Of a stretch of 64,000 nt of DNA, positions 506-49,724 are shown one piece after another. Origin of the DNA: a virus (lineage: Duplodnaviria > Heunggongvirae > Uroviricota > Caudoviricetes); IMG/VR virus record IMGVR_UViG_3300023184_000028, positions 118,551 through 182,550 of that record. One strand, written 5' to 3'. The position numbers were made by a program, and so were the translations under genes. Position 1 is the stretch's first letter. Each line of letters begins with the position of its first letter. The notes beneath the pieces are model-generated. The model was not told the origin of the DNA and made no database searches. It worked only from the letters and a program-made list of their open reading frames with translations.

Positions 506-3500
506 ATGGGTCAATCATATAGAATAAGAACAACGCCGGGGGATGACAAAAATATTGTTATTAAAGTAGAACAAGATTTTGAGCAATTGGAAGTTCTATC
601 TTTAAAAATAAGACAATCTGATGTTTATACTAGGATGTGTTCTGATTATGGGGTTATTGCCGGAAGAGTCTTCGCAAATAACGGATATGGTATTCCAAAT
701 GCCAAACTTTCAATTTTTATTCCAATAAAACCCGAAGATGAGGATAATCCTGTAATATCTTCAATATACCCTTATAAGAATTTAGAACAAACTAATGAAG
801 ATGGATATAGGTATAATTTATTACCATATATCCCATCTTACAGTACTCACGTACCAACAGGTACGTTTCCAACAAGATTAGATGCTTTAGTAAATCAAAC
901 AGTTGTAGAACTTTATGACAAGTATTATAAATATACTGTTACAACCAACGATAGTGGTGACTTTTTAATTTTTGGTGTTCCTGTTGGAACTCAAACAATT
1001 GTGATGAATGTTGATTTATCAGACATTGGTGAATTTTCATTAACTCCTCAAGATTTAATAAGGATGGGTGTTGCAACTGAAGAACAGTTTGATGGTGTAA
1101 AATTTAAATCATCATCTAATTTCAATCAATTACCACAAATTATTGTAATTAATAAAACAATTGAAATTGTTCCATTTTGGGGTGAAAAAGATGTTTGTCA
1201 AATTGGTATAACAAGAAGTGATTTTGATTTAACCAACGAGGCGAATATTAATATACAACCGACATCAATTTTCATGGGTTCTTTAATGAGTTCAAATGAA
1301 AAATCGGCGGTTAAATCAAACGGTATTGCGCAAAAAGCGACGGGTGATTTGTGTAAGTTAATTACAGGTCCTGGTGAAATTATTGGATTAACACAATCAA
1401 TTTATAGAGATTCTAATGGGTTACCTATTATAGAAAGGGCTGATTTACCAAATGGTGGTAAGTTAATAGATTCCGCGGGTGCTTGGTTATTTGATTTACC
1501 AATGAATCAGGATTATGTGTATACAAATGAATTTGGACAACAAGTTTTATCTAATGACCCGTCAGTAGGTGTCCCAACAAAGGCTAAGTATAGATTCAAG
1601 ATTAAATGGCAACAAAGTACAAGTGTTTCAGAAGATTATAAAAGAGGTTATTACTTAGTCCCTAATGTTAAAGAACGTGGGTGGAACGGAGGATTTGACC
1701 CAACTGTTATTCAATTTGTTAATCCAAATTATCAAACTGACCCCGATTGGTTGGATTTCCAAAAATCGTATGCGTTTAGTTTAGATTGGTCGGCATATAC
1801 TAACGGTAGTTTAAGTATCAGTAATCCTGATATTCAAGACATAATAAATTGTGAAGATTATTTTTATGAATTTGATTATAATAAAGTTTATACGGTATCT
1901 TCATTTATTGATAATTACAAAATTGCTGATAATAAAGAAAAATTTATTGGTATTAAAAGGATTGATGATGATACTTGTGAAGATGTTGCTAATAGATACC
2001 CTGTAAATGACGGAGTTTTTCATACAAGTTTAATTTGGAGAGTTTTTAATTTTTTATTAGTTATTTTTGGTATTATTGGACTACCTCTACTTATTATATA
2101 TAGTTTTTTTGCATATCTTTGGAAGTGGTTAAAAGTACCATTTTTTATTTTTTTAGAATTTTGGGCCGGATATAATATAATTCAATCAACTGCGGGAATA
2201 ATTGCTGCCGCAACACCATCAGTAGGGTTTGGTGCTACAGTATGGATTGCGGGTGTTATATATTATTCGGTAATGTTGGGACTATGGTTAGCGGTTGCGA
2301 TTGCACTTATTATTGTTTTTAGAAAATTAAAGGATTATGATTTTCCACCATTGAGATTACCAATGATAACATATCCGGACTGTGATGTCTGTGATTGTAA
2401 AGGTGATGATAGTGAAGGTACTTCGTTATCATCATCTGATTCATCAGCGGCAAGTGCTGGAAATTCTGGAGGGCTATTAGTCAATTTGACAAATTTAGGG
2501 GCATATGGAGATGTTTTGGACGTTAAATTTGATACTGATTTTCCGGCGTTTCATAAAGAAAACCCGCCCAATGGTAACGGATGTTTCTACAAAGATTATG
2601 ATTATCTTCAAGTACTTCAATTATTAACAGGTAATTCTTATAAGGCTAAAGATAATAATGGTTCAAATTATGGGGTACAATTGTATTCAACATTTGATAT
2701 TGGTGCGGATGATTATTACTCGGCTATGTATACTAGAAGTATGCCTTTTGGAGAGAGATTAAATCAATTTAATACAAAGGCTAATTACTATAATGGAAGT
2801 AATCAAATATCTGTACAGATAGAACCAAATATACCAACAAATAGTGGTAAACAACATTTAGATAATGTCATTGTGTTTATTGGTCAACCCGGAACTTACG
2901 GTGATTTAGGAGCTGGCTCTATGTTTAGCTTTGTAGGTCCAAAAAATTCTAAAGACCCAAATATAACAGGAGGAACAAGAAATAGTTTTGGTACTAAGTC
3001 TATTACAGGTACAACAGATACGGGTAAAACTTCAGTAAGTATAATTTATGGTAATCCGAGTAGTAGATTTGGTAATTTAGTACCTGTAACATATGCTCTA
3101 ACTGCAAGTGCGAGTACAGATGAAAAAACTTATCAATATCCTAGTGATATTGAATACTTCCAAGTTGTTACGGGAATGACAATCACACAATTTAGAGCTT
3201 TACATGCGTCTAATCCATTTGCAAATTCATTGGCTGATATTATAGAAAGTAAAACAGTTATAACAAAAAGAACTTGGTATCATAATAGTGATTGTTGGCC
3301 AGGATGGGAAAAATTATTTACCTGTCCATATCCTGCGAAAAACATAGATTATATGGATAATAATTCAATAATTTATATTGCTCAAAGAGGGGTTGACCCA
3401 TATTCACCACAATATCCAACAAGAGTAGGTTTAGGAAAACTTTTAGGGTCTAATAATATAAATAATGTCCAAGTGGATGTTCCACTTAGATTAAACATAC

Positions 3501-5791
3501 CGATTAGAAATATTGACCCAGCTAATGGTGGTACAATTGGTAATGAATTATGTTATATACATAATATAGCTCCAGATAATTCAATACCAAATAATGGACA
3601 AAAACTTTGGAACCCATCGTATTTTTTCACACCAGGTAATCAGTATACAGGATATACCACAAATTTAACAAGGTATTATTCTGCTTTAGATAGTACTACT
3701 TTGAGTTATGTGATTGACTCAACACATGCGGCGAATACAAGTATTAGTAATAGGGCAATACCTCAATCAAATATTAATGGGTCTAGAGATGTATTTTCTA
3801 ACGCGAATAATTTTTTATTTTATGCGAGTCCTAATATACCTCAAATGTATTCAGCGCAAGAGTCTTTAGTCGGAGGTACTTTTATGTATATGACTCCACC
3901 AGGGATTTATAATGTGTCTAACGGATGTTATTATGGTAATTATAGTTATGGTATTAATCAAGCACCACCCGAAGAATATTATTTTAGTTTCATATATCCA
4001 ACGGGATATACTACAAGTATGTCAGATAAAACTAATATTGTTATGAGGTCTGATAGATTACCATCATCGGATGGGTTATTAAGATTTTCTACCGCAAATA
4101 CAGGAAATACGGTTTATACAAATGTTGCAATGATGAACCAAAATCCAGCACAAAATATGTATGTATTTTCAGATGGAGGTGTTTTGACTATTGGTGGCGG
4201 GATTAGTTCTCCACAGTATAATGCTGGTGATTTTCTATCAGGAAACAACGTATTTTATGGGACAGTTTTAAATACTTTTGATTGTGCGGGAATGGTTCAG
4301 TTTAATTGTTATTCAGGGGATGGGGTACATTTTGGTGTTAGTAGTAACTGTACAAATACAGATGCGGTTGAAAATGGTTGTTATGTATTTGTTAGAGACC
4401 CGTTAAATGGTTTATTTAAACCAAGGTCGGACAATGATATTACAAGATGGTCTGAATATGTTTTAAGATTTAGATTTTTTTATGCTTTGTGTCAAGGTGT
4501 TTTATCTAACGTATTTGTTAATAATTGGGTTAATGGTAATTTATATGCGTTTCCTTTTAAGGTTGATACGTATTATAATAAATTAAATCAGGTTTATAAA
4601 CGTAAGTTTCCTTTTGAAACAGTTATGTTACAATACGAAACAAATAATTTTTATTATCGTTCATCTCCTGCAATAAAATTTTTAAATACATATAAATTTG
4701 TTGGTGCTCAATCTAATGGGGACCCTACAAAAGGTGCTAATAATTCTGACATAAAAACTCCTACAACAATAATGAATTTAGGACCAAGAGACGAATTCTT
4801 AAAAGAAATTATTTTAAGTCCTAACTATTACGGATATAATATGAAAAAAATATCTCAAACATCATATACTGACTTATCGGACATGATAAACTTTTTTTCA
4901 ATTATTAGAATAATAGATATTAATTTTTGGCGTTCATTATTGAGTAGTGATATGATTAAAAAACTTTTTAGTCGTGGCGGTACAGGGTATAGAGTTGATG
5001 CAGATTTTGCGCAATCTGCGGCAATTAATAGTCAAATAGGTGTGATACCATTTGATTCTGATTATTATGATAGTAGTGGTCCTAATCCGGCATTAATTGC
5101 TGCAGGAGTCGGGGCTAGCAATATAATGATGGGAATTTATTTTGAATCTACAGCCGAAGACATGCAAGTGAGAGATTTTATTTCCCCGATGAGAATAATC
5201 AGATATAATACAAATACAAATTCTTTTGTTTATGATTATATTTCAAACAAATCTCAAATTGTTCCAAATTATAAATGGAGAATACAAAGTGGTGGATACT
5301 CCATGTTTGGTAAACAAAATAATGATTGGGCGACAACGCCTCCTGTTAATGGGTTTTACGCTGAAAGGTATCAATCGTTGGATAGATTAACGAGTGATTA
5401 TCCTAGAGCTGGTTCATTATCACCTAATGAATATAACGCTAGAGGTTATATATTTGCTCAATCAGCCGCAATTACTTTGACAGTAGGAACTCCGTTAATA
5501 GTTGGTAATGTTTATACAATTGTTAATTATGTTAGTCCTGATAGTTTTTTAAATGTTGGAGCAACCGCAAACACAAATGACGTTACTTTTATTGCAACAG
5601 GGACAACACCATCAAGTTGGTTTAATTCAACAATAGAGGGGGCACCTATTTATTTAACGGGAGTGACAATAAATCCAAATCCTGCATTAGCGGGAGCTCC
5701 TTGGTATTTTTATTTTGGATTAAAGAAAGGAGAGACGGCAATAAATAAATTTTACACCAAATACATAGGTGAAACTATATTAAATGAGTGA
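506..5791 (+). CDS. Giant virion/tail-associated protein (1761 aa): N-terminal carboxypeptidase-regulatory-like beta-sandwich, internal cluster of ~4 transmembrane helices (aa ~505-610), CDVCDC Cys cluster
   Basis: Uninterrupted 5.3-kb ORF in an AT-rich genome. Motif GVIAGRVFANNGYGIPNAKLSIFIP. Hydrophobic stretch LIWRVFNFLLVIFGIIGLPLLIIYSFFAYLW...AGVIYYSVMLGLWLAVAIALIIVF. N/S/T/Y-rich composition typical of Flavobacteria-phage fibre proteins. Confidence 0.75.
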   Translation: MGQSYRIRTTPGDDKNIVIKVEQDFEQLEVLSLKIRQSDVYTRMCSDYGVIAGRVFANNGYGIPNAKLSIFIPIKPEDEDNPVISSIYPYKNLEQTNEDGYRYNLLPYIPSYSTHVPTGTFPTRLDALVNQTVVELYDKYYKYTVTTNDSGDFLIFGVPVGTQTIVMNVDLSDIGEFSLTPQDLIRMGVATEEQFDGVKFKSSSNFNQLPQIIVINKTIEIVPFWGEKDVCQIGITRSDFDLTNEANINIQPTSIFMGSLMSSNEKSAVKSNGIAQKATGDLCKLITGPGEIIGLTQSIYRDSNGLPIIERADLPNGGKLIDSAGAWLFDLPMNQDYVYTNEFGQQVLSNDPSVGVPTKAKYRFKIKWQQSTSVSEDYKRGYYLVPNVKERGWNGGFDPTVIQFVNPNYQTDPDWLDFQKSYAFSLDWSAYTNGSLSISNPDIQDIINCEDYFYEFDYNKVYTVSSFIDNYKIADNKEKFIGIKRIDDDTCEDVANRYPVNDGVFHTSLIWRVFNFLLVIFGIIGLPLLIIYSFFAYLWKWLKVPFFIFLEFWAGYNIIQSTAGIIAAATPSVGFGATVWIAGVIYYSVMLGLWLAVAIALIIVFRKLKDYDFPPLRLPMITYPDCDVCDCKGDDSEGTSLSSSDSSAASAGNSGGLLVNLTNLGAYGDVLDVKFDTDFPAFHKENPPNGNGCFYKDYDYLQVLQLLTGNSYKAKDNNGSNYGVQLYSTFDIGADDYYSAMYTRSMPFGERLNQFNTKANYYNGSNQISVQIEPNIPTNSGKQHLDNVIVFIGQPGTYGDLGAGSMFSFVGPKNSKDPNITGGTRNSFGTKSITGTTDTGKTSVSIIYGNPSSRFGNLVPVTYALTASASTDEKTYQYPSDIEYFQVVTGMTITQFRALHASNPFANSLADIIESKTVITKRTWYHNSDCWPGWEKLFTCPYPAKNIDYMDNNSIIYIAQRGVDPYSPQYPTRVGLGKLLGSNNINNVQVDVPLRLNIPIRNIDPANGGTIGNELCYIHNIAPDNSIPNNGQKLWNPSYFFTPGNQYTGYTTNLTRYYSALDSTTLSYVIDSTHAANTSISNRAIPQSNINGSRDVFSNANNFLFYASPNIPQMYSAQESLVGGTFMYMTPPGIYNVSNGCYYGNYSYGINQAPPEEYYFSFIYPTGYTTSMSDKTNIVMRSDRLPSSDGLLRFSTANTGNTVYTNVAMMNQNPAQNMYVFSDGGVLTIGGGISSPQYNAGDFLSGNNVFYGTVLNTFDCAGMVQFNCYSGDGVHFGVSSNCTNTDAVENGCYVFVRDPLNGLFKPRSDNDITRWSEYVLRFRFFYALCQGVLSNVFVNNWVNGNLYAFPFKVDTYYNKLNQVYKRKFPFETVMLQYETNNFYYRSSPAIKFLNTYKFVGAQSNGDPTKGANNSDIKTPTTIMNLGPRDEFLKEIILSPNYYGYNMKKISQTSYTDLSDMINFFSIIRIIDINFWRSLLSSDMIKKLFSRGGTGYRVDADFAQSAAINSQIGVIPFDSDYYDSSGPNPALIAAGVGASNIMMGIYFESTAEDMQVRDFISPMRIIRYNTNTNSFVYDYISNKSQIVPNYKWRIQSGGYSMFGKQNNDWATTPPVNGFYAERYQSLDRLTSDYPRAGSLSPNEYNARGYIFAQSAAITLTVGTPLIVGNVYTIVNYVSPDSFLNVGATANTNDVTFIATGTTPSSWFNSTIEGAPIYLTGVTINPNPALAGAPWYFYFGLKKGETAINKFYTKYIGETILNE

Positions 5792-7532
5792 TATTAATAC
5801 AACCATAGTACTGGGTTCTAAAAGATATAAGTCGGCGATAAATACTGATTTAAGTATTGAGGTACCTTTAGTTAATACTCAAAAAGAAATTGATGAGTTT
5901 GACAGAAGTGATACTGTTGATTTAAGTCAAATATTTGATGATGAAAGACAGGAATCTAAGATTTTTAGATTGACTGCTAGTATTGATTTATTATTTTACA
6001 ACGCCTATAGTGGAACAACGGGGGCTTTTGGGTATGTTCCATTTAGAAATAATCTGTATTATGTTAATAGTGAATCTTCATTCAATACTAATAATTGGTT
6101 TGGATATCCCCAATATTATGAATTTGACTTTATAAGAAATGATAATAATGTTTCTGGTTATACTATAAATTCAGGTACAACTTCACCACATATTAGTTTT
6201 ATTAATAAAAGTGCATCAACATATAATTGGACTCAATATGTGAGTTATGCGTATGAGAATGAGTCTAATAAAGTATTACAATATAATTTAAACTCAGCAA
6301 CAACTCTAACGTGGGTATGTGGTACTGGAATTCCTTTTTATGTTGTTAATCCATTTAATTACGAAGGTAGAAATTTGATATCTTTTGTTTGTCCTGTTGA
6401 ACATAATTTGAGTGTTGGTGAGTTTGTGATAATAGAGTTTAACTTTGGTTGGACTGGATATAATGGGAGTAAAGTTTTTCAAGTATATTCGTTAGGTAAT
6501 TATGGGTATAATTCAGATAAATATATTTTTAACTTATATAATAATGGATTTACAGGGAATACGTTTTTTAATTCGGCTCAAGGGACCTTTAAAAGAATTA
6601 TTGATATTAATAATTCTGCAGAAACAATGTCTAAATATTACGTTAGAAAACATAAAATAATAACTAATGTTAGTGATTCAATTCTAACGAAATGTGGATT
6701 TGAACAAAATATTTTTAATGTTAAAAGGCAATATGAATTTGGTACATTAACACCCGATAAAGTTTCTAGAATAACACAAAAAGAAGGGTCTCAATCGTAT
6801 CTATTGTCATTCTCAAGTGATATTGATATATCAGAATATAGAGATAATTTGAATAGACCATTATCGGAATTGTTTATTACTATTATAAATAATGGTTATT
6901 TTGGATGGATGAATAAACCAATTGCAAATAATATCTCAATTAGAGAAGGTTATCAATACAATTTGGGTCCATCAGTATCATCATACTGGGATTACACTAA
7001 TTCTAGTGTTAATTTAACTACAATACCAACAGCGTCATATACTAAACCAGGTGGATTTACCTTTTATTATAATCAAAATTTAAAAAGTGGTGATACAATA
7101 AATGGTGATTATTGTGAGTTTAATCAATTTGAACAAAAAGAAAGAATTATTTCTCAGTTGTATCATAAGATATCATTTAATGACAATTTATTTATAATTC
7201 AATCGGCAACAACAAATCCAAACGGATATTATTATAAACCGCATAATTTAATACAATTAAGGGTTTATTCTGATTATTTAGAGGAGGGTTCATTAAAAGA
7301 GGTTGATAACATACCATATTATTCATATTACTCAAATTACAAAAATAGTTTTATTTGGAGAGACATGTATACTTACGGATTTATTGATGAGTCAGGAAAA
7401 GGGGTTAATTATCCTTTTTTAAATGGGACTCATTATCCATCAACCAAGATTATATTTAGACTAATTCCTGAAGGAAATGTTGGTCAAAATATATCTACAA
7501 TAGCAGACCCGATTACTGATGATTGTGAATAA
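5784..7532 (+). CDS. Virion structural protein (582 aa)
   Basis: Long ORF overlapping upstream stop by 8 nt; N/Y/S/T-rich beta-type composition. Confidence 0.7.
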   Translation: MSDINTTIVLGSKRYKSAINTDLSIEVPLVNTQKEIDEFDRSDTVDLSQIFDDERQESKIFRLTASIDLLFYNAYSGTTGAFGYVPFRNNLYYVNSESSFNTNNWFGYPQYYEFDFIRNDNNVSGYTINSGTTSPHISFINKSASTYNWTQYVSYAYENESNKVLQYNLNSATTLTWVCGTGIPFYVVNPFNYEGRNLISFVCPVEHNLSVGEFVIIEFNFGWTGYNGSKVFQVYSLGNYGYNSDKYIFNLYNNGFTGNTFFNSAQGTFKRIIDINNSAETMSKYYVRKHKIITNVSDSILTKCGFEQNIFNVKRQYEFGTLTPDKVSRITQKEGSQSYLLSFSSDIDISEYRDNLNRPLSELFITIINNGYFGWMNKPIANNISIREGYQYNLGPSVSSYWDYTNSSVNLTTIPTASYTKPGGFTFYYNQNLKSGDTINGDYCEFNQFEQKERIISQLYHKISFNDNLFIIQSATTNPNGYYYKPHNLIQLRVYSDYLEEGSLKEVDNIPYYSYYSNYKNSFIWRDMYTYGFIDESGKGVNYPFLNGTHYPSTKIIFRLIPEGNVGQNISTIADPITDDCE

Positions 7533-8325
7533 ATATAAAATATTATTATCTACAACAAATACAGATAAAGAAATCAATATACCAATTGAAATGAATTGGG
7601 ATTTGCTTGATAGAAGTGACTCTTTGGTTGAATATGAAGAACAAACAATTAAAAGTGTTATCAATCAAGATAAAGATTTTGAAGTTGCAAGATTTGAACA
7701 TTCTCAGAATGTAAATTCATTGACTACAGATATTAATTATGAATTTTATTTTGCTCCATCAGGTGCTACCAGCGCAAATACACTTTGGTTAACATCATAT
7801 CCTGTACAAGGATTTACTCCTACGGAAATTTATTACTATAGTAATTCTTTTAAAAAGTCATTTTTTAAATTAGATTTATATGATACTACTGATTTAACTA
7901 AACAAACCAACTATGTTACCTTAATATTACCAACACAACAAGGAGTTACATCCGCAACGACAGTCGGATATACAGTGAATGATATTAAAACTCCTGTAAT
8001 GAAATTGGATTTTGTTGGTGATAAAGAAGGGTTTTTTATTTACTGGTTAAAAAATACATCATTTTTAAATATTAATACTTTTTATATGACCGCAAAGTTT
8101 TTTGATGCGAAGACAGGGATTTTTATTAAAATGATGAATAGACCACAATCAACATTAACAGGTATTAATAAATTTAATTTTCCCCAAGAAAAATATTTTT
8201 ATTATAAAGTAATTTTAGATTATACTAATTATACATATAAGGTTTATGATATAAACACGGGGTACGATGTCTTAATTGGAGATAGTTCTAACCCAATAAA
8301 ATGGTATGAATATATTAATCCGTAA
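7519..8325 (+). CDS. Virion structural protein (268 aa)
   Basis: ORF in operon-like tight spacing with neighbours. Confidence 0.65.
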   Translation: MIVNKYKILLSTTNTDKEINIPIEMNWDLLDRSDSLVEYEEQTIKSVINQDKDFEVARFEHSQNVNSLTTDINYEFYFAPSGATSANTLWLTSYPVQGFTPTEIYYYSNSFKKSFFKLDLYDTTDLTKQTNYVTLILPTQQGVTSATTVGYTVNDIKTPVMKLDFVGDKEGFFIYWLKNTSFLNINTFYMTAKFFDAKTGIFIKMMNRPQSTLTGINKFNFPQEKYFYYKVILDYTNYTYKVYDINTGYDVLIGDSSNPIKWYEYINP

Positions 8326-9494
8326 TGAACGAAGATTATTACTATATAAAAATATCCCATGAAAATGTATTAAATGACATTTTTCCTGAACCGTATACCG
8401 CATATACGTATGTAATAACGGGTATAACAGGAACTTGTTGTTATATATCATCAATATCAAGTGACACGGTTTATGTTACGGGACTAACCTACGTTTATTC
8501 GTCTATGACTGATATATTAAGTGGAGGTACTAATGGTGATTCTTTATTGACAGGATTAACAATCCCAATACTGTTTAGAGAGACAGCTGTGGATATGGGA
8601 TACTATTCTGTTTTTGATGGGGCGATTATGCAGGCAGATGTAGTTAAAAACTTTGTCTTTTCAGCAACAACATCATTACCTAAAAGATATTATTTTTATA
8701 ATACGTCAGAAACACAGTTGAGAACCTTTTTACAACTATCCACATATTCAGTTGATTGGGGTGACTCCTCACCGATACAAACAATTACAACCACATCACC
8801 AAATTTTATTTATCATGATTACATAAATAATGGTAGTTATTTAATTACATTAATACAGAATACACCTTGGGGAAGAAATACTGTAAAGAAAACAGTAGTG
8901 GTTCCGTTTACAGGAACAACAATTCAAAACCCTAATGGTTCTGCATACTTTACTCCGAATATAGGGTCTTGGTCTGCAACATCAATATCGTATGATTTTA
9001 TATTCTCAGGTGACTCGGATAATCATATTTCGGCACAAACATCAAATAATTATGTTTCCGTTCCATTTTCAATCAGTGGATATACAACATCAAGAATAAA
9101 TGAATTATCTCAATATGGGGTAACAAAATATCCTTTATATGTCCCAACAATAAAAAATGGACAACAATTTGGAGTCATAACAACAATGAGTTCAAGTTAT
9201 ACAGGATATACTATAGAGGGTGTTCAGTATTTAGATTTTCCTGATAAAACGACGATATATGTTTTTGATAGTTCTGGATTAACATCTGATTGGATGGTTC
9301 AATCTGCAATAACAAAAAATGAATCTCTTATGAATATAGTTAATGACCCTGAAGTACAATCAGATGTTTTTGTAGAAAGAGGTAAGAATAGCGCATTGGA
9401 AAGAGTTGAAAGATTAGGTGAGATTGATAATATTGGGGATTTAGAAAACTATGGATACGGATTTTTTAATTTTGTTAATCAAAGTAATTTTTAA
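8325..9494 (+). CDS. Virion structural protein (389 aa)
   Basis: ORF; start overlaps previous stop (ATGA-type junction). Confidence 0.65.
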   Translation: MNEDYYYIKISHENVLNDIFPEPYTAYTYVITGITGTCCYISSISSDTVYVTGLTYVYSSMTDILSGGTNGDSLLTGLTIPILFRETAVDMGYYSVFDGAIMQADVVKNFVFSATTSLPKRYYFYNTSETQLRTFLQLSTYSVDWGDSSPIQTITTTSPNFIYHDYINNGSYLITLIQNTPWGRNTVKKTVVVPFTGTTIQNPNGSAYFTPNIGSWSATSISYDFIFSGDSDNHISAQTSNNYVSVPFSISGYTTSRINELSQYGVTKYPLYVPTIKNGQQFGVITTMSSSYTGYTIEGVQYLDFPDKTTIYVFDSSGLTSDWMVQSAITKNESLMNIVNDPEVQSDVFVERGKNSALERVERLGEIDNIGDLENYGYGFFNFVNQSNF

Positions 9495-9506
9495 AAAAGA
9501 GTAATA

Positions 9507-9518
9507 AACTATTTATTA
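9507..9518 (+). promoter_or_regulatory. AACTATTTATTA motif, second copy
   Basis: See 482-493. Confidence 0.3.
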
Positions 9519-9532
9519 AATAAAAGAATAAA

Positions 9533-10441
9533 ATGGCAATAGGAACCTACGGAACAATAAGACCTTCTGACGTATCACCTGAAGATGTTGAAATAATATT
9601 AAATTATACTCCTTCTAGGGATGTTACAGATAATTTTATATTAAAAAAGTTAGATACGTTAAATATATTGAGGCCATATTATAATAATAGTAATACTGGC
9701 GGTAATGCCAATATTGAAATATTAGGTGGTCTTTATAATTTAAGATTACCGGCAAATGAGTTTAATAAAATTGGTATTTACACTTTATATGTTAAGCCCG
9801 CTCAAATAAGAACGGAAATTACTGATTGTGGTGTATTATCGGCGCTACCTAACGTTAAAGGTATTGTAATTGATTTAAATAATGTACCGACACAATATAG
9901 AAATAAATTTGTATCACAAGGACTTGTTGGATTTAGGGTTGAATACTTAAATAGTGACGGTACTAAAATACCTAACTTTTTTAGAATAGTAACTTCTAAC
10001 TTTTTTTGTGAACCTGTTTTACAAAATTTAACAAATACATCTCAAAAGGCAATTAGATATAGATATGTTGATGCGGTCACAAATTTAATATTTTGTACAT
10101 TAACACCATCATCATCGCCGACAAACAAACCAAATGCAACTCCATTTATAGGACAACCCGCACAAAAGATAATAATAACTAATACTTTTTTTAATCCAAT
10201 TACGATAGATATTGAAATTGTTGAACACGATATATCAACATTAGCGTTGGCTTTGTATGGTAATCAAACTAAATCAATGCAAGATGGTATATATACTATT
10301 TATGACTCAAATAATAATATCTACAAACAATATAACTTGTATGAAATTAGAGACCAATCTAATTCTTTGTTATATGAGGTTAGACAAGACAGAGGAAATA
10401 ATATAGATTATAGTAAAAACTTTACAAACATAACTCAATAA
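9533..10441 (+). CDS. Virion structural protein (302 aa)
   Basis: ORF preceded by AACTATTTATTA motif (9507-9518). Confidence 0.65.
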   Translation: MAIGTYGTIRPSDVSPEDVEIILNYTPSRDVTDNFILKKLDTLNILRPYYNNSNTGGNANIEILGGLYNLRLPANEFNKIGIYTLYVKPAQIRTEITDCGVLSALPNVKGIVIDLNNVPTQYRNKFVSQGLVGFRVEYLNSDGTKIPNFFRIVTSNFFCEPVLQNLTNTSQKAIRYRYVDAVTNLIFCTLTPSSSPTNKPNATPFIGQPAQKIIITNTFFNPITIDIEIVEHDISTLALALYGNQTKSMQDGIYTIYDSNNNIYKQYNLYEIRDQSNSLLYEVRQDRGNNIDYSKNFTNITQ

Positions 10442-13392
10442 TGGGTAAAACGATTATTAAATATCCTGACGGTGCTAATGGTAGACCTTTTTCAGATGAT
10501 TTAGTTGGATTTCAATTAGTCCAAGGAGGTGGTTTAACGCAAGGTAATTTTCAATTCACAACAACTATAACAGAAAAAGTTAATAGAGAGTTTAATATTG
10601 GTTCTTTTTCTGAACCAATTACTTTAGACACATTAAATGTTTCTAATATTTTAGAATCTAAAGCTATTATTGCTAAAGAATTTAGAGTTTATCCTAATTT
10701 TGATTTAAGTGAGATAACTAAATTTAATATTTATGGTCCGTTATCTAAAAGAATGTCAACATCAGTTCAAAAAATTATAAATTATTTTCCTTCGGCATTA
10801 GAAGTATATAATCTTAATTCTGATTTTACTACTGACAATACCGCGATTGATATTGATTATGATAATATTGAAGATGTTACTTCATTTAAAATTGATGTAA
10901 CTAAATTGACAAATCCTTTTGGAATTGATTATTCGGTTAATGCGACTAGAAATATTTCATTAAAAGAATTTGAGGTATCTCCATTAAGAAATTTAACTGT
11001 TGAGTATAATAAGTTTTCTTTATTTTTAGGAGATAAAGAATTCCCTATTTATCATTTTACTCCATCAGATAGTTTATATTCAGGTTTTATAGAAATTATT
11101 GTTTTTGGTCAACCATTTTCAGGAAAAATAGAAACAACCGAAACTTTAGTTATTAGACCAAATACTTTTTATGCAGATAAATCGTTAATAGAACCGTTTG
11201 ATGAGGTTGAAAAGTTTTTATTAAATAGAATGATTGTCCCTAAATACACGGCAACATTCCAGGTACCAAAACAATCGGATGATGGTGTTTTATTTACTAG
11301 TTTTGTTAATGTAACTTGGCCAATAGATGGGATTTGGAATTTAGATATTAGGACAAGATTATTTGATAATTATTTAAATTCTTTAAATGAGATTGCGGTT
11401 GCATTTGATGAATCAAAAACAAATTTAATAACAAGATTTTTAACTACTGAATCGTTTAAAGAATTTGATACTGAAGACCAAAGGGTTCAAAAAATATTAA
11501 GTATCTATGGTAGAAGTTTTGATGAGGTTAAAAAGTTTATAGATGGATTGGCTTATATGAATTCTGTAAATTATACGGTTAAAAATGATATACCATCACA
11601 ATTACTTAAAAATTTGGCAGAAACAATTGGGTGGAAAATAAATGTTTCCCCAATTACTAATGAAAATTTCTTAGGCTCAGTTTTTGGTAATAATAGTAAA
11701 ATTGAATTTGAGGGATATTCTAGAGCGTCAACGCCAACAGAGTTAAATTATCAATTTTATAGAAATTTAATTTTAAATTCGGCTTATTTGTTTAAGTCAA
11801 AAGGTACGAGAAAGTCTATAGAATTTTTACTAAGACTTATTGGTGCTCCTGAGGCTTTAATAGAATTTAATGAAAATATATATATTGCAGGTCAGAAAAT
11901 TAACATGGCGGATTTTAATATGAGATATGCTCAAATATCTGGTGGTACATATGTTGAAGAGATACCCGTATTTGATACTACAACATTTACTATTTATGGT
12001 AATGTATATTCTGCTTTTACAACACAAACTACGATAACTGATGTTGATGTGACATTGGCGGATTTTCCTGTAGATTCTTATGGTTATCCGAAGTCGCCTG
12101 AAGATACTCAAGATTATTTCTTTCAGAAAGGGGCGGGATGGTTTGAACTAGTTAAAGACCACCAAAGTCCTCAAAAAATTAATTATACTAATAGTGTATT
12201 TACTGGGCAAAATTTTAATGTTCAAACTGAGTTTGAGCAATTTACTTATGGACAAAAATATTTGGATAGATATAGATATTTTCCATATTTGAATACAGGT
12301 TATAGACTTTTAAGAATACCCGATAATAAAAAAAGCTGGCCTGTGACAGACACAGGACTTAGAGTCGGTAATGGAGGCTCTAAATATGATGCTTATTATT
12401 TTGTTGATAATGAAAAATTTGTATTAAATGTTAAGAATATTGATTTATTTTTAAATCCTGCTCAAGGATTGGTGTATGATGTTTGGTATATGTCAAGAAA
12501 GTATGATTATCCAATACCTAGTACTGGTTTAACTTCCCCTTATCCACAACCAGGAGGAATTGATTCAACATTTATTAATCCACAACCAAATAAAAAATCG
12601 TTCTTTGAATTTGCCCAAACATTTTGGAATAACATGATAAATGTTAGAGATAGACAATTTAGTTCTGATGGTAAAACAAGTGGGTATTTAACATTACAGT
12701 CTATATTTTGGAATTATTTACAATCACAAGAAACTGTTGGAATACCAAACAATAATTTTAATTATCGTTCAATGATGGGTTATGTTAATGGATTGGGTGA
12801 TTATTGGATTAGATTGGTTGAACAAATGATACCAGCGACCACAATATGGTTAGCCGGAGTTAAGTATGAAAATTCTATATTTCATAGACAAAAATTCGTT
12901 TATAGAATTCAAAGGGGATGTGCAATATTGCCAGTACCTTGTGTACCTTGTACATTAAATGGGAATTTATTTTTATATAATTGTATTGATGAGACGATTG
13001 AATGTCCTATTTATCCTTGGGATGGAGGGTCATCAACAGTACAATCATTCCAAGATATATTAAATCAAACTGTAACAAATTATGTTACGTCTAATTCATT
13101 GACATGTGATTTAAATTCTTTAGTTACTGACTGGTATATTGATTTAAGATTGGATAGTACTGTTTTATTACAACAAAAATTCTTTACAGGATATGGAACA
13201 TTACAAACACCAACTAATTCTCAATGGAGCGGTGCAGTACAAACTTATGTGACAAATTTAACTGATGCTGACTTAACGTATTTCCTTAGTGGAAATACTT
13301 TGTATGTTTCTAATTCAGGATGCGAACCTAAATTTACAAATAAACAAATCCAATTAAACGTTGGATTGAATTTTACAATTAGTTGTAGTTAA
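10441..13392 (+). CDS. Large structural protein (983 aa) with Cys-rich C-terminal segment
   Basis: 3-kb ORF; CAILPVPCVPC...CIDETIECP cluster; ATGA overlaps with both neighbours. Confidence 0.7.
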   Translation: MGKTIIKYPDGANGRPFSDDLVGFQLVQGGGLTQGNFQFTTTITEKVNREFNIGSFSEPITLDTLNVSNILESKAIIAKEFRVYPNFDLSEITKFNIYGPLSKRMSTSVQKIINYFPSALEVYNLNSDFTTDNTAIDIDYDNIEDVTSFKIDVTKLTNPFGIDYSVNATRNISLKEFEVSPLRNLTVEYNKFSLFLGDKEFPIYHFTPSDSLYSGFIEIIVFGQPFSGKIETTETLVIRPNTFYADKSLIEPFDEVEKFLLNRMIVPKYTATFQVPKQSDDGVLFTSFVNVTWPIDGIWNLDIRTRLFDNYLNSLNEIAVAFDESKTNLITRFLTTESFKEFDTEDQRVQKILSIYGRSFDEVKKFIDGLAYMNSVNYTVKNDIPSQLLKNLAETIGWKINVSPITNENFLGSVFGNNSKIEFEGYSRASTPTELNYQFYRNLILNSAYLFKSKGTRKSIEFLLRLIGAPEALIEFNENIYIAGQKINMADFNMRYAQISGGTYVEEIPVFDTTTFTIYGNVYSAFTTQTTITDVDVTLADFPVDSYGYPKSPEDTQDYFFQKGAGWFELVKDHQSPQKINYTNSVFTGQNFNVQTEFEQFTYGQKYLDRYRYFPYLNTGYRLLRIPDNKKSWPVTDTGLRVGNGGSKYDAYYFVDNEKFVLNVKNIDLFLNPAQGLVYDVWYMSRKYDYPIPSTGLTSPYPQPGGIDSTFINPQPNKKSFFEFAQTFWNNMINVRDRQFSSDGKTSGYLTLQSIFWNYLQSQETVGIPNNNFNYRSMMGYVNGLGDYWIRLVEQMIPATTIWLAGVKYENSIFHRQKFVYRIQRGCAILPVPCVPCTLNGNLFLYNCIDETIECPIYPWDGGSSTVQSFQDILNQTVTNYVTSNSLTCDLNSLVTDWYIDLRLDSTVLLQQKFFTGYGTLQTPTNSQWSGAVQTYVTNLTDADLTYFLSGNTLYVSNSGCEPKFTNKQIQLNVGLNFTISCS

Positions 13393-16300
13393 TGCCTATT
13401 AATTATATTATAACAACAGTTACTGGTGATTGCCTAAACATAGGTACAGGTGCTTTATATATAGAACCAATTGATGGACAATCGCCATATATTATTGATT
13501 GGCAAATACCTAATTTAGGGACAGACGTTTCTTTTACATCATCAACTAGAACTGGTTTATCGGTAGGTACTTATCAAATATTAGTTACAGACTCTTCAGT
13601 TTCACCACAAGAACAACCGGTTTTATTAACCATATCTTCAGGAATTTGTTTAGAAACAAGTGTAGTAAATTCAACTTGTGGATTACCAAACGGGGTTTTA
13701 ACCGCAACCGCAACAACATCAGTTAATATAGTTGATTATTATTTATATAGTAATACTAATGGATATGTAACTTCAGGTACTTCCTCTGTCGGATTTTATC
13801 CTTTTGTTCAACTGTCTGCAGATACATATTATGTGGAGGCGATTGATGCTGGTGGATGTAGCGGACGTTCATCTACTAATGTTGTTTTGGATTCAGGACA
13901 GTTAGATTATGGGTTTTTTGTTGTTAATAATTCAAGATGTTCAGGTCCTGCTGGAAAAATATATATTACAGGTCAAACAGGAGTTTCACCATATACTTAT
14001 TTATGGAGTAATAATGAAACAACTTCATCTATTAGCGGTTTAACTGCGGGTGTTTATACTGTAACAGTACTTGATTCTGGAGGATGTTCTGTCACTAAAC
14101 AAGCAACAGTTATAGATGTTGAACCCCCAGGTATAACTAATTTATTACCTGTTTCTCCAAGTTGCTTTCAGGCAGACGGACAAATCACGGTTTATTTGAG
14201 TGGAGGAACTGCACCATTTTATTATGTTTTATCAAATGGGGATACAAAAATTGACTTTTCAAATAATACAACATTTACCGGACTATCATCAGGAATATAT
14301 AATGTAACGGTTACTGACGCAGGGTTATGTACCACATCAGGAACAATAACACTATCAAGCCCAAATGCATTTACATTTGTTGCTGCATCATCGGTTCCTT
14401 CTGTATGTGGAAGTAGTAATGGAATTATTAATGTGTCTGTTCAAGGGGGTTCAACTCCTTATACATATACATTAACAGATACTTCAGGTAATACTAGAGT
14501 TATTTCTATAAATTCTAATGCTCAATTTAATAACTTACCAACAGGTACATATCATATTAAAATAACAAACCCAAGTACTTGTAGTTATGAGACCGACATT
14601 ACCGTTATTAACGAAGATGCTTTTACAATTAGTACAACGTATATTGATACAACATGTGGGTTATCAAACGGTTCTATTAGAGTTGAGACAAGTGCTAACG
14701 GTACATACACCTATGAAATACCGGGACAATCAATTACCTTAAATTCTACTGCATATACGTTTAATAATTTATCAAGTGGATTATACGCAGTTTCAGTTAC
14801 TGATGTTAATGGTTGCAAACAAACAAAATCAGTTAGTATAAAAAGTAGTGACTTGGTACAGTTTAGTTTAATAGATACAAGTTGTGGTGGTACAGGTAAT
14901 GAGGGTACAATAACTGCGGTTATTACTAATGGAACCCCTCCATTTGCGATATCTTGGTCATCTAATGTTGGTTCTCAACATGGTATATATGTTACAGGAC
15001 TTACAGCTGGAACATATTCTGTAACAGTTACTGATAGTAATGACTGTAGTTTAACTAAAACAACTCAAATAATTTGTGGAACTTCAAATACGTCATATCA
15101 GATTTTCAATATTTGTGATGATATTTTTACAGAAAGACCTGGTACAAAAACAGGGTTTCCACAAATGTTAAATCAGGGTTATCAAGATTTAACCTCAGGT
15201 GAGACAAATTGTAAATTAACGTTGGCTCAATTTAATTTGTTATTAAATGTTGGTAGTTCGGCGTTCACTAGTAACTTTTTTGCTACAACATCTTTATCTG
15301 TATATCCTACAGACCAACAATATGTGGATGAATTAAATACTTTATTAAGTGGAGTTCCTGGTATTGGTTCAATAGTTCTAAATGCAAATACGAATTCAAT
15401 TAGTTTAAATACGGATTGTGCTAGAACACTATCTGCGGATACTGTTAGTGTTGCAATTAGAATTGATTATGACATTTGTTGTTATGGGGTACCATCACCG
15501 TCAGCTACGCCAACAGTTACACCAACTCCTACGATAACTCCAGAAAATACTCCAACACCAACAGTAACTATTACACCAACTATAACAGTAACACCTACTA
15601 TTACTCCGACACCAACAATTCCGTTAGAACCATTTATAATGTCCGCATATAGTTTAAGTTCTATAACAATAACAGCTTTAAATTCAAATGTTTATCCATA
15701 TGTTGTAGATTGGGGTGACGGTAATTCCGATATCTACGCACCAGGAAATCACTCTCCTAACCATACTTATAGTTCTTCATTCACTGGAATTATAACAATT
15801 AGTTCACAACATTTATCAGATATAGATTCTTTTAGTATAACTAGTACCTTAACAGGTAGTACAACCCCTCTAATTTCTATTAGCACATCAGAATACACAA
15901 AATTAAGTGGAGTATTAAATAGTTATTTCGGATATAAAGTTTTACTTGATGGATTAATTTCTCAAATACCAAGATTTATTACATATTTGGTAATATCATC
16001 ATCAAGCATAACTGGAAATACAACAGATTTACCATCAACATTAACAAATATTCAAATGTTTAATAATAATGATAATACAGTATTAAGTGGTAATACTTAT
16101 GGATTACCTGCAGGGTTAGAATATGTTTCAATTTATGATAATACTATTGGAGGTAACATAAGTGGAATACCTTCAGGTTTAACTTATTTAAATTTACTTG
16201 GTGATAACACGGTTAGTGGTGATATAGGTGGATTACCTTCAGGATTAGGTACTATGACAATATTTGGTAAAAACACATTAAGTGGAAATGTGTCATCATT

Positions 16301-16943
16301 ACCATCAGGTTTAACAACTTGTCAAATATCATCATTGGATGGTTATATAGGGGCTAAAAATACAATAAGTGGAAATGTTTCTGGATTACCGAGAGGACTA
16401 ACTAATATTTTATTTGGTGGTGATAATACTATTAGTGGTGACACTACAGGATTACCATCAGGATTAACTTATTGTAATATAACAGGTCAGAATACAATTG
16501 GTGGAGATACAAGTGGATTCCCAACGGGATTAAAAGATTTGTATTTAGTAGGTTCAGGTACAACCGCAGGAACATATATATCCGGAAATGTAACAGGATT
16601 ACCAATAGTATTGTCATCATGTACAATCACAGGATATAACACAATTGATGGTAGTTTCTCAGATTTTTCACCAAACTTAGTTTTTATTGCGATTGAAGGT
16701 AATAATACAATTACGGGATATACTTTTAGTCATGTTTGGCCAACAACAATGAGACAATTAACTGTTCTTGGGAATGCCACAGTGAGCACACCAAATATTA
16801 ACAATATTTTATCTGATTTAGCGACTTATTCAACAACTTGGATTGGTGCTGCCAAATTAATTAAATTAAAAGGAACTCAAACCAATCCTGGTGCGGTGGC
16901 AATATTAACGGGAAGAACTGTTACGGTTACAATAACACCGTAA
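13392..16943 (+). CDS. Tail-fibre/adhesin-like protein: multiple SprB-type repeats, Pro/Thr linker, C-terminal leucine-rich-like ~24-aa tandem repeats
   Basis: Repeated modules C..G..G.I.V..SGGT.PY.Y.W (e.g. SCFQADGQITVYLSGGTAPFYYVLSNG; VCGSSNGIINVSVQGGSTPYTYTLTD). PTVTPTPTITPENTPTPT linker. Repeats GLPSGLTYLNLLGDNTVSGDIGG. Confidence 0.8.
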   Translation: MPINYIITTVTGDCLNIGTGALYIEPIDGQSPYIIDWQIPNLGTDVSFTSSTRTGLSVGTYQILVTDSSVSPQEQPVLLTISSGICLETSVVNSTCGLPNGVLTATATTSVNIVDYYLYSNTNGYVTSGTSSVGFYPFVQLSADTYYVEAIDAGGCSGRSSTNVVLDSGQLDYGFFVVNNSRCSGPAGKIYITGQTGVSPYTYLWSNNETTSSISGLTAGVYTVTVLDSGGCSVTKQATVIDVEPPGITNLLPVSPSCFQADGQITVYLSGGTAPFYYVLSNGDTKIDFSNNTTFTGLSSGIYNVTVTDAGLCTTSGTITLSSPNAFTFVAASSVPSVCGSSNGIINVSVQGGSTPYTYTLTDTSGNTRVISINSNAQFNNLPTGTYHIKITNPSTCSYETDITVINEDAFTISTTYIDTTCGLSNGSIRVETSANGTYTYEIPGQSITLNSTAYTFNNLSSGLYAVSVTDVNGCKQTKSVSIKSSDLVQFSLIDTSCGGTGNEGTITAVITNGTPPFAISWSSNVGSQHGIYVTGLTAGTYSVTVTDSNDCSLTKTTQIICGTSNTSYQIFNICDDIFTERPGTKTGFPQMLNQGYQDLTSGETNCKLTLAQFNLLLNVGSSAFTSNFFATTSLSVYPTDQQYVDELNTLLSGVPGIGSIVLNANTNSISLNTDCARTLSADTVSVAIRIDYDICCYGVPSPSATPTVTPTPTITPENTPTPTVTITPTITVTPTITPTPTIPLEPFIMSAYSLSSITITALNSNVYPYVVDWGDGNSDIYAPGNHSPNHTYSSSFTGIITISSQHLSDIDSFSITSTLTGSTTPLISISTSEYTKLSGVLNSYFGYKVLLDGLISQIPRFITYLVISSSSITGNTTDLPSTLTNIQMFNNNDNTVLSGNTYGLPAGLEYVSIYDNTIGGNISGIPSGLTYLNLLGDNTVSGDIGGLPSGLGTMTIFGKNTLSGNVSSLPSGLTTCQISSLDGYIGAKNTISGNVSGLPRGLTNILFGGDNTISGDTTGLPSGLTYCNITGQNTIGGDTSGFPTGLKDLYLVGSGTTAGTYISGNVTGLPIVLSSCTITGYNTIDGSFSDFSPNLVFIAIEGNNTITGYTFSHVWPTTMRQLTVLGNATVSTPNINNILSDLATYSTTWIGAAKLIKLKGTQTNPGAVAILTGRTVTVTITP
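16020..16680 (+). repeat. Array of ~72-nt coding repeats (leucine-rich-like ~24-aa units) at the 3' end of the SprB-repeat fibre gene
   Basis: GLPSGLT....N(T)(IV)SG(ND) recurs about 8 times in the protein. Confidence 0.5.
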
Positions 16944-17187: not shown

Positions 17188-18165
17188 ATGTCAGAATTGT
17201 TATTTGTTACTGCACAACCAGATGTCCCTTATTTTCATTGGCAATGTGAAGTATATTGTCATAATTTTGTTGAGAAAGGTATAAAACCATCTCAAATACA
17301 TATTATATTAGGTATGTTTAATGGCGGTACAGTACCATCAGAAAACGGGTTAAAGTTAAGAGAAAAAGGTTATAATGTCCATTTTTATAGTGATGAAAGA
17401 GATAAGAGACATTACATACCTAGTATTAAGCCATACTTAATTTCTAAATGGTTAGAAGAATTTCCTGAAAATGGTGAATTGTTTTTTCTGCATGATGCAG
17501 ATATTATACTGAGAGAGTTACCTGATTTAGAAAAGTATTTAACAGACGATGTCTGTTATATGGCGGATACCAAGGGATATATAGGTCATGATTATATTAT
17601 GAGTTGTTGTCAAAGATATGAATCGGAACACCCAACATCTGAGAAAAATCAATTAATGCAGGAGATGTGTGACATTGTTGGAATAAATATTGAATGTTTA
17701 AAGAACAATCAAGAAAGTTCTGGAGGGGGACAATATATTATTAAAAAAACCACATCAAAAAATTGGTATGACATATACAATGATTCCAACAATTTGTACG
17801 ACCAGATGCATAATTATCAAAAAAGATTTCCAATAAATCATGGGCAAATACAATTTTGGACGGCTGAGATGTGGTCGTTACTTTGGAACTTGTGGTGTTT
17901 AGAAAAAGATACAAAAATTATAAATGAATTAAATTTTTGTTGGGCGACAGATAGTGTTGATAATTATGAAAAAAAATATATACTCCATATGGCTGGGGTA
18001 TTAGACGGAATGAAAACAACTAAATTTTATAAAGGTGATTATATTAACTCAAGCCCATTAGAAAAATTAAAAGAAAATGAAAACTATTTTGATTTTGTTG
18101 ATGAGAATAGTGCAACAATAAAATATGTTGAAGTTATGAAATCATTAGTTAAAAAAAACAAATAA
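17188..18165 (+). CDS. Hypothetical protein (325 aa), possible glycosyltransferase-like (FLHDADII DxD-type motif)
   Basis: ORF; the DxD motif is the only weak functional hint. Confidence 0.55.
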   Translation: MSELLFVTAQPDVPYFHWQCEVYCHNFVEKGIKPSQIHIILGMFNGGTVPSENGLKLREKGYNVHFYSDERDKRHYIPSIKPYLISKWLEEFPENGELFFLHDADIILRELPDLEKYLTDDVCYMADTKGYIGHDYIMSCCQRYESEHPTSEKNQLMQEMCDIVGINIECLKNNQESSGGGQYIIKKTTSKNWYDIYNDSNNLYDQMHNYQKRFPINHGQIQFWTAEMWSLLWNLWCLEKDTKIINELNFCWATDSVDNYEKKYILHMAGVLDGMKTTKFYKGDYINSSPLEKLKENENYFDFVDENSATIKYVEVMKSLVKKNK

Positions 18166-42785: not shown

Positions 42786-43070
42786 ATGAAAAATTTTATT
42801 AAAAACAATTTTACAACAATTGTATTGGTAATCTCTTTATTGGCATTTTTAAAAAGTTGTAATGACACAAGAAAAATATCTGAAATCCAAAAAGAAATTA
42901 AAGCAATTAACGACTCAACGTACACTAAAACTGAATTAGGTATTCAGTTAAAAATCTCAGGGCTGGAAGCGGAAAAAAGAATGATTCAAGCTACAGATAG
43001 AAAAATGTTGGATGTACAAAGACAAACTCAGATTGAGGAAGAAATAAAACAATTAAAATCAGGTAAATAA
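42786..43070 (+). CDS. Small membrane/coiled-coil protein (94 aa, N-terminal TM)
   Basis: ORF after a strong terminator; may belong to a lysis cassette. Confidence 0.5.
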   Translation: MKNFIKNNFTTIVLVISLLAFLKSCNDTRKISEIQKEIKAINDSTYTKTELGIQLKISGLEAEKRMIQATDRKMLDVQRQTQIEEEIKQLKSGK

Positions 43071-49539: not shown

Positions 49540-49724
49540 AAAGATTGGCATTAATTTGTGAAGGAATTGATATATTACATGCCGGTAAAAAGGCGGTTGT
49601 TTTTCAGTTAAATAGGGAAGAGTTTCTCCAAGTTAGGGATTCCTTAAAAAGTGTTGGAGACGATAAAACTGAGTTTAAGATTGATATATCAGGTATTGAA
49701 TTTATTTATCTTTTAAGTGAGTAG
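49503..49724 (+). CDS. Small hypothetical protein (73 aa)
   Basis: ORF. Confidence 0.4.
   Translation: MEENQEGFNGYLERLALICEGIDILHAGKKAVVFQLNREEFLQVRDSLKSVGDDKTEFKIDISGIEFIYLLSE

Follow-up and report, generated by a model that had tools for sequence, protein, structure and literature searches.

A conserved membrane-grade helical cluster inside a giant protein encoded at the baseplate wedge position of an uncultured tailed phage

The giant gene and its hydrophobic cluster

The DNA analyzed here is a 64,000-nucleotide (nt) stretch of the tailed-phage record IMGVR_UViG_3300023184_000028 (positions 118,551 to 182,550), which we call the window and to which all nucleotide positions below refer; features lie on its plus strand unless noted otherwise. 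An open reading frame (ORF) of 1761 amino acids (aa) extends from nt 506 to 5791, begins with ATG, and has a stop that overlaps the start of the next gene. Sequence searches place its product, hereafter the giant protein and the source of all residue numbers, in a large unnamed family. The feature of interest is a hydrophobic helical cluster at aa 509 to 605 (nt 2030 to 2320), which was delineated with hydropathy scales, shuffled sequences, AlphaFold2, and the family alignment. A preliminary description of this DNA had identified the 1761-aa ORF exactly and had quoted three hydrophobic strings, all of which are present in the giant protein. It had placed a hydrophobic cluster of about 100 residues at nt 2020 to 2340; the cluster was confirmed, with the bounds given above.

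The classical hydropathy thresholds for a membrane helix are a Kyte-Doolittle (KD) value above 1.6 and a Wimley-White octanol sum below 0 over at least 19 residues; the cluster passed both and is predicted to be helical. The 19-residue KD values peaked at 2.76 (aa 513) and 2.53 (aa 587). The 19-residue octanol sums were -15.2 and -11.8 kcal/mol, compared to -6.9 for the next best segment in the whole protein. Charged residues make up only 4 of the 97 positions, compared to 16.5% of the whole protein. The mean KD value of the cluster was 1.65 and was equaled in none of 5,000 shuffles, in which the best 97-residue windows averaged 0.51 +/- 0.14. The best single 19-residue window was less exceptional, being equaled in 20 of the 5,000 shuffles. 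AlphaFold2, which the preliminary description had proposed as a check of this region, was run with a 96-sequence alignment and modeled helices at aa 509 to 569 and 581 to 608 with predicted local distance difference test (pLDDT) values of 78 to 92. Outside aa 509 to 608, the predicted secondary structure is mostly beta.

The cluster had been described as having four helices, a number that proved too precise. Two segments are unambiguously membrane-grade, helix 1 at aa 509 to 539 and the last helix at aa 587 to 605. The approximately 45 residues between the two are moderately hydrophobic and possibly form one or two weaker helices. The giant protein alone has a membrane-grade segment among the proteins of the structural block (nt 1 to 26,000), and such segments were found in 4 of the 52 ORFs of the whole window. 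Judged by its sequence, the cluster has all the properties of membrane helices, and these fit the membrane-spanning module that had been proposed for it.

The cluster is bracketed by cysteines. Cys491 (nt 1976 to 1978) lies 18 residues ahead of the cluster. On the other side, a flank rich in lysine and arginine (K/R-rich; aa 606 to 618, nt 2321 to 2359) abuts the last helix and is followed by the motif PMITYPDCDVCDC (aa 619 to 631, nt 2360 to 2398), which contains Cys626, Cys629, and Cys631. The CDVCDC cysteine cluster (aa 626 to 631, nt 2381 to 2398) and the Ser-rich segment noticed earlier do indeed come after the helices; the latter is a low-complexity linker (aa 636 to 655, nt 2411 to 2470) that is modeled with a pLDDT below 50 and is variable in homologues. 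The model likewise has a pLDDT below 50 at the cysteine region. Because the four cysteines bracket the hydrophobic excursion, Cys491 and Cys626/629/631 probably form a metal or disulfide clamp, similar to a zinc ribbon, across its base.

Conservation of the cluster across the family

Relatives of the giant protein form at least 3,802 clusters at 90% identity, with lengths of 1,580 to 1,900 aa. An exhaustive search with aa 1 to 640 returned 1,068 clusters at 50% identity, including 808 with an E value of <=1e-30. The cluster members are unnamed or annotated as "hypothetical protein" throughout, and family contigs reach 250 to 320 kb. The giant protein had no match in Pfam, PHROG, or NCBIfam. 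No match was found in the PDB by sequence, and the profile search returned nothing at an E value of <=10. Likewise, tblastn against 50,697 sequenced phage genomes returned no match at an E value of <=1e-5 for the whole protein or <=1 for its N-terminal domain.

Insert and cysteine counts were made on 256 full-length members, and charge counts were made on 96 homologues. All 256 members carry the insert between the N-terminal domain and a YPDC motif, with a length of 53 to 153 aa (median, 114). The best 19-residue KD value of the insert was at least 2.0 in 246 of the 256 members (96%, regarded as membrane-grade), between 1.6 and 2.0 in 10, and below 1.6 in none; the hydrophobicity of the putative membrane module is conserved across the family. 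In most columns of aa 509 to 605, the charged fraction is near zero. Helix 1 is also conserved in sequence, with the rough consensus F.IL.QIIQLIG.PLLI.YH..AFLWN, polar positions at Asn/Ser515, Gln519, Gln522, and His/Ser533, a Gly-x-Pro in the middle of the helix, and a near-helical periodicity. The helices after helix 1 vary freely in sequence, length, and number. Some members have a single further helix followed by a Cys-rich stretch, and a greedy window count gave about one to five membrane-grade segments per member.

The flanks of the insert are conserved as well. Cys491, Cys626, and Cys629 were each found in 254 of the 256 members and Cys631 in 233. Cys491 is invariant in alignments A1, A2, and A4; close homologues show no change at P624, C626, or C629 and 99% conservation at C631. 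The segment at aa 606 to 620 has a mean of 3.45 lysines plus arginines versus 0.80 aspartates plus glutamates, and homologues have next to no charge in the short loop that follows helix 1. Ten divergent members have amphipathic, charged helices instead (19-residue KD, 1.6 to 2.0; up to 22 charges). These amphipathic helices indicate that a helical hairpin is probably ancestral and that the extreme hydrophobicity characterizes the main clade.

Domains of the giant protein

The N-terminal domain (aa 1 to 505, nt 506 to 2020) is the best-conserved part of the family. It aligned in 95 to 99% of 259 relatives, has dozens of invariant columns, and is 40 to 69% identical between representatives of the 50% clusters. 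The carboxypeptidase-regulatory beta-sandwich that the preliminary description had recognized near the N terminus agrees with the fold of aa 48 to 170 (nt 647 to 1015), a seven-strand beta-sandwich that can be superposed on solved members of the transthyretin-like/CarboxypepD_reg group. The corresponding Pfam model, PF13620, did not reach its gathering score in the giant protein (17.1 bits versus a cutoff of 32.3 bits; E value, 0.007) and was found below threshold in 18 of 27 family members (best E value, 1.6e-4).

The middle of the protein is more variable than either end in the 259 relatives. It includes a mostly beta domain at aa 741 to 1190 (nt 2723 to 4075) that was modeled confidently and for which no recognizable solved fold or structural relative was found over its approximately 450 residues. 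A second conserved domain lies toward the C terminus (aa 1280 to 1640, nt 4343 to 5425); it aligned in 90 to 96% of the 259 relatives and contains the invariant motifs NNW.NG, PTT, and D.D.AQ. Beyond it is an insertion of about 60 aa (aa 1655 to 1715, nt 5468 to 5650; L..G..YTI.NYV.GD.F.NVGA...G..F.A.G) that is restricted to one subclade, the giant protein and its closest relatives in alignment A1. This insertion is probably the source of the sole matches in BFVD, a library of predicted viral structures; the matches cover 58 to 77 columns at 28 to 38% identity and are to uncharacterized proteins of uncultured Caudovirales. The insertion has the look of a small, mobile surface module that other uncultured phage proteins share. 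Some divergent members of the family have SprB repeats above the Pfam threshold near the C terminus, and some have an Ig-like domain; these modules fit an exposed, host-facing distal end.

Gene neighborhood and predicted host

Directly upstream, the window start cuts a gp6/J-like baseplate wedge gene, of which the C-terminal end remains (nt 30 to 410) and matches phrog_6, "baseplate wedge subunit" (E value, 3.4e-7). In two relatives (L001 and L002), the full 613-aa gp6-like gene matches phrog_219 (E value, 3.7e-21) and is preceded by a gp25-like gene (PF04965). The order of gp25-like gene (PF04965), gp6-like gene of approximately 610 aa, and giant gene was found in all five relative loci that reach upstream, on contigs of 22 to 320 kb; a sixth locus, cut just upstream, has a 520-aa gene fragment before the giant gene. 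The giant gene occupies the slot of T4 gene 7, and T4 shares the adjacency of genes 6 and 7.

One divergent relative (member P0290, locus L003) has an additional 110-aa ORF between the gp6-like and giant genes (nt 3999 to 4331 of that locus), which overlaps the start of the giant gene. Its product is a single-pass transmembrane (TM) protein (19-residue KD, 3.13) whose N terminus carries a CxxC and whose tail is acidic; just two homologues were found among 5.8 billion proteins. The helices of the giant protein at this locus are merely amphipathic. A TM module supplied in trans was rejected as a general rule, since three other divergent loci lack the 110-aa ORF.

Downstream of the giant gene are five co-oriented genes that abut or overlap (nt 5784 to 13392; 582, 268, 389, 302, and 983 aa) and that had no family match. 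Their order and sizes are kept in L001 and L002, the first four have counterparts of similar size in L003, and more distant relatives are partly syntenic. They are followed by a gene for a 1183-aa SprB-repeat protein (nt 13392 to 16943; PF13573, 60.6 bits versus a cutoff of 28), probably a fiber or adhesin; SprB is a gliding-adhesin repeat of Bacteroidota. The giant gene was correctly assigned to the structural block in the preliminary description, lying behind the gp6-like wedge gene and ahead of the SprB-repeat fiber-like genes. The gp6-like gene upstream, the overlap with the next gene, and the SprB-repeat fiber-like genes downstream together indicate a baseplate context.

SprB repeats also occur in the products of nt 19769 to 22324 and 22366 to 23682, with the Pfam threshold passed only by the protein of nt 13392 to 16943, which additionally has weak Por_Secre_tail/Ig-like matches. 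The three SprB-repeat proteins are probably tail fibers made of host-type adhesin modules. Amid these fiber-like genes, nt 17188 to 18165 encode a 325-aa protein of phrog_4417 (unknown function; E value, 4e-69) with an unusually wide spread, being 33 to 38% identical to proteins of Enterococcus, Lactobacillus, Staphylococcus, Clostridium, and Chryseobacterium phages.

Elsewhere in the window there are genes for RuvC, a primase, an SbcCD-like nuclease, DnaJ, a protein of the SPFH type, and a methyltransferase, nearly all on one strand, and the G+C content of the window is about 31%. With this content, the window resembles a section of the genome of a large lytic myophage. The SPFH/Band 7 protein (nt 31527 to 32480; PF01145, 75.8 bits) has an N-terminal membrane-grade helix (19-residue KD, 2.52 at aa 43). 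N-terminal membrane-grade segments were also found in the products of nt 43070 to 43927 and 45083 to 45706 (19-residue KD, 2.31 and 2.71; aa 8 to 10), where they are either signal peptides or membrane anchors; the former product had no PHROG match. Three sizeable minus-strand ORFs (nt 49702 to 50349, 57643 to 58473, and 58497 to 59330) interrupt the otherwise plus-strand window and may be small inserted cassettes. The T4-type late promoter TATAAATA was not enriched in the window (26 observed versus 18.8 +/- 4.5 expected), and no tRNA or Rfam family was found in it.

Four of the seven relatives binned in metagenome-assembled genomes are labeled as Bacteroidota (Flavobacteriaceae, Lishizhenia, Paludibacteraceae, and "Bacteroidetes bacterium"). 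The window probably derives from an uncultured large myophage of Bacteroidota. Moraphages are jumbo phages with predicted Bacteroidota hosts that encode DnaJ/DnaK and in which no tape measure gene was identified (PMC12619734). The lineage of the window resembles moraphages and may belong to them. The DnaJ of the window (nt 50350 to 51309) is full length, with the J domain, CXXCXGXG zinc finger, and C-terminal domain all above the Pfam thresholds, and agrees with the DnaJ/DnaK of moraphages (PMC12619734). It might help the phage to handle very large or hydrophobic structural proteins.

A membrane-integrated baseplate protein as the favored interpretation

Gene order suggests that the giant protein is carried in the virion. 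We tentatively favor, as a plausible but far from secure reading, a structural protein of the baseplate module that is truly integrated in the membrane, with both large domains on the same side, and that tethers the baseplate to the cytoplasmic membrane during assembly. The N-terminal domain would dock, probably, on the gp6-like/gp25-like wedge, and the C-terminal 1100 residues would probably form the outer part of the baseplate. The excursion at aa 509 to 605, with two to four helices, would enter the infected cell's cytoplasmic membrane cotranslationally, in the form of one or more hairpins, leaving both large domains in the cytoplasm and the K/R-rich flank at the inner face. The baseplate and tail assembly would thereby be tethered to the membrane, in a manner comparable to the peripheral anchors of type VI secretion systems (T6SS) and the thylakoid-anchored contractile injection system (tCIS). 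We infer each of these elements, namely, baseplate membership, docking of the N-terminal domain, membrane insertion, topology, and the clamp.

Several observations lead to this reading. The family maintains membrane-grade hydrophobicity while the sequence and length vary, and this, together with the K/R-rich flank and the confident helix prediction, argues for real contact with lipid. The free variation of the later helices is a pattern expected of lipid-facing segments rather than of a packed protein core. The excess of lysine and arginine after the last helix is a positive-inside signature. Since the protein is synthesized in the cytoplasm without an N-terminal signal, insertion of a hairpin into the cytoplasmic membrane is the simplest outcome. 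The preliminary description had left the choice between envelope penetration or channel formation during DNA delivery and a membrane-anchored assembly intermediate. The K/R-rich flank and the poorly conserved later helices lean toward lipid insertion in the producing cell and, with it, toward the latter. A DNA-delivery channel has no specific support, because the gene is in a wedge/periphery position and not in a hub or tape measure position.

Comparison with known systems

Tailed-phage baseplates are regarded as soluble, and membrane anchoring is seen as a hallmark of the cell-bound relatives of phage tails, namely, T6SS, tCIS, and the Streptomyces contractile injection system. Older work on T4 reportedly described membrane-associated baseplates, and the GenBank note on gp7 is a trace of it. 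This note, present in GenBank/RefSeq, reads "C-terminus is predicted integral membrane domain" (T4 gp7, L005:3061-6159). T4 gp7, P2 gpI, Mu gp48, TssG, and Afp12, the third conserved component of the wedge, hold the same slot after gp25-like and gp6-like proteins as the giant protein does, with the 110-aa ORF intervening in L003. T4 gp7 is also large (1032 aa), but its hydrophobic segment (aa 882 to 906, FVHPVGFGFIAITLLTMFINVGLTL; 19-residue KD, 2.07) is one C-terminal stretch, unlike the cluster in the giant protein, which is internal, comprises several helices over about 100 residues, and has KD values up to 2.8. An hhalign comparison of the family profile with T4 gp7 gave a probability of 0.1%. 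The nearest isolate is Flavobacterium phage immuto, related through its gp6-like protein at 27% identity; homology to its gp7-slot neighbors was rejected, as these proteins of 369 and 1265 aa are without similarity, and none of the neighbors is hydrophobic. By position, the giant protein is a gp7 analogue, and we do not claim membership in the gp7 family because every homology test failed.

A functional precedent for the favored interpretation is found outside phages. In the tCIS of Anabaena, the fiber-like protein Cis13 binds the baseplate and anchors the whole contractile machine through a transmembrane helix (PMC8894136). Like the role proposed here, that of Cis13 combines a peripheral position, a baseplate-binding N-terminal domain, and anchoring to the membrane of the producing cell (PMC8894136). 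Cis12, which is in the gp7 position of tCIS, bears a large extension that includes a putative amphipathic helix turned toward the membrane (PMC8894136), and the divergent members of our family have amphipathic helices too. The likeness to Cis12 and Cis13 is functional and architectural and is drawn from the description in that paper. tCIS is a cellular machine and not a phage, and Cis13 is small with a single helix on its C-terminal side (aa 122 to 154), whereas the putative anchor of the giant protein is an internal element of several helices with conserved cysteines on both sides. A looser precedent is CisA, a membrane adaptor that links the phage-tail-like contractile injection system of Streptomyces to the cytoplasmic membrane (PMC12237407). 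CisA is separate, small, bitopic, and outside the assembled particle, whereas the membrane element of the giant protein is built into a protein of the structural module. Among phage proteins, the T4 gp7 note is a further precedent by analogy.

An action on the host membrane in the course of infection is ascribed to tape measure proteins with predicted transmembrane helices (PMC11948020). Examples are phiCD508 gp59 and, with a hydrophobic stretch, T4 gp29; they are tail associated, as the giant protein would be. However, a tape measure is a long, helical protein that occupies the inside of the tube and has its gene close to those of the tube/chaperone and hub, whereas the giant protein is mostly beta and its gene comes after the gp6-like one. 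The preliminary description had stated that tail proteins are normally soluble, which overlooks transmembrane tape measures (PMC11948020), the T4 gp7 note, and Cis13 (PMC8894136).

Alternative explanations

A number of points weigh against the membrane-integrated baseplate protein that we favor. No homology or fold similarity to gp7, TssG, Afp12, or solved baseplate proteins was found, and baseplate membership is drawn solely from synteny. No isolate of the lineage is among the 50,697 phage genomes. Apart from the cluster, the AlphaFold2 model of the N-terminal part is poor, with an overall mean pLDDT of 60.5. The ten amphipathic members indicate, from their sequences, that membrane spanning is not essential to the core role of the family. 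The crude helix counts include odd numbers, which, if real, would clash with a topology that has both ends inside. Finally, a baseplate held by 6 x (2 to 4) membrane helices needs to be released at lysis, and no mechanism for this is visible. It is conceivable, although improbable, that the baseplate is built on the membrane and that the released virion keeps the helices, either within a small patch of lipid or in a lipid-free bundle able to re-insert into the envelope of the next host, with the clamp of Cys491, Cys626, Cys629, and Cys631 joining the N- and C-terminal domains.

A related explanation, which we consider possible but doubtful, is an insertion device borne by the virion, in which the hairpins are hidden in the baseplate, for example, in a self-shielding bundle of at least six copies, and, once the host is bound and the baseplate rearranges, are freed to enter the host envelope, locking the baseplate on the cell or aiding penetration. 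It would be compatible with assembly on the membrane if the virion keeps the helices. A hairpin is the natural geometry for one-sided insertion, the conserved polar positions and near-helical periodicity of helix 1 suggest specific helix-helix packing, the SprB repeats at the C termini of some members point to contact with the surface of the host, and the entry of tail proteins into membranes has an accepted precedent in transmembrane tape measure proteins (PMC11948020). However, the wedge/periphery position of the gene would put the protein at the outer-membrane surface. Insertion of an alpha-helix through the lipopolysaccharide leaflet is unfavorable. Moreover, the freely varying helices 2 to 4 fit poorly with tight shielding in a protein assembly, and a K/R-rich flank is typical of biosynthetic insertion. 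The hairpin also lacks the shell of amphipathic helices found in pore-forming toxins, with the flanking prediction being mostly beta, and a buried hairpin of the pore-forming-toxin type was rejected for this reason. The amphipathic helices of the divergent members can instead be read as a sign that the ancestral hairpin was a protein-protein element, which would make the cluster a buried oligomerization core or coiled bundle of the baseplate that never meets lipid. This is unlikely. It would agree with the two long helices, rather than four membrane-length ones, given by AlphaFold2 and with T4 gp7, which is annotated as a structural wedge protein of the virion despite its "predicted integral membrane" segment. 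Yet ordinary protein cores come nowhere near a stretch of approximately 97 residues that is almost free of charge and reaches -12 to -15 kcal/mol per 19-residue window, and packed cores keep their length and residues, whereas this insert spans 53 to 153 aa and keeps only its hydrophobicity. A segment of this kind leaving the ribosome is also expected to meet the membrane-targeting machinery.

The release problem would be resolved if the giant protein were a membrane protein of the baseplate module that stays out of the virion, either an assembly platform or scaffold that is left behind or a late effector on the host envelope. CisA is required for the function of its contractile machine while being outside it (PMC12237407), and the incorporation of the giant protein into the virion is itself read from gene order. 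We nevertheless find this explanation quite unlikely, given a protein of 1,600 to 1,900 aa with strong full-length conservation and a gene embedded, with overlapping stop and start, between wedge and fiber-like genes. The SprB and Ig-like modules of some members would also suit an exposed virion protein and not a cytoplasmic scaffold. A divergent tape measure protein would account for the length and the transmembrane helices (PMC11948020), and none has been identified in moraphages (PMC12619734). This reading is highly improbable and was rejected on secondary structure and gene position. Outside the cluster, the giant protein is mostly beta and not made of long helices, it begins with a globular beta-sandwich, and its gene is placed behind the gp6-like one, not between the tube/chaperone and hub genes.

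Significance

The cluster is real, conserved, and widespread. To our knowledge, an internal multi-helix transmembrane cluster has not been known in a wedge-position protein of a phage, and this is what is new here; transmembrane helices were already known in tape measures and in cell-bound anchors. If the baseplate is built on the cytoplasmic membrane and the released virion retains the helices, this tailed phage would have a baseplate component embedded in a membrane and would parallel the membrane-docked baseplates of T6SS and tCIS. Membrane tethering would also raise the question of how such a virion is released or whether it carries lipid. The family provides a clean marker by which a large, uncultured jumbo-phage lineage, probably of Bacteroidota, can be recognized. 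An integral membrane protein in the gp7 slot of such a widespread phage family would blur the line between phages and cell-bound contractile machines and would offer a phage-side model for the origin of contractile machines that are docked on membranes.

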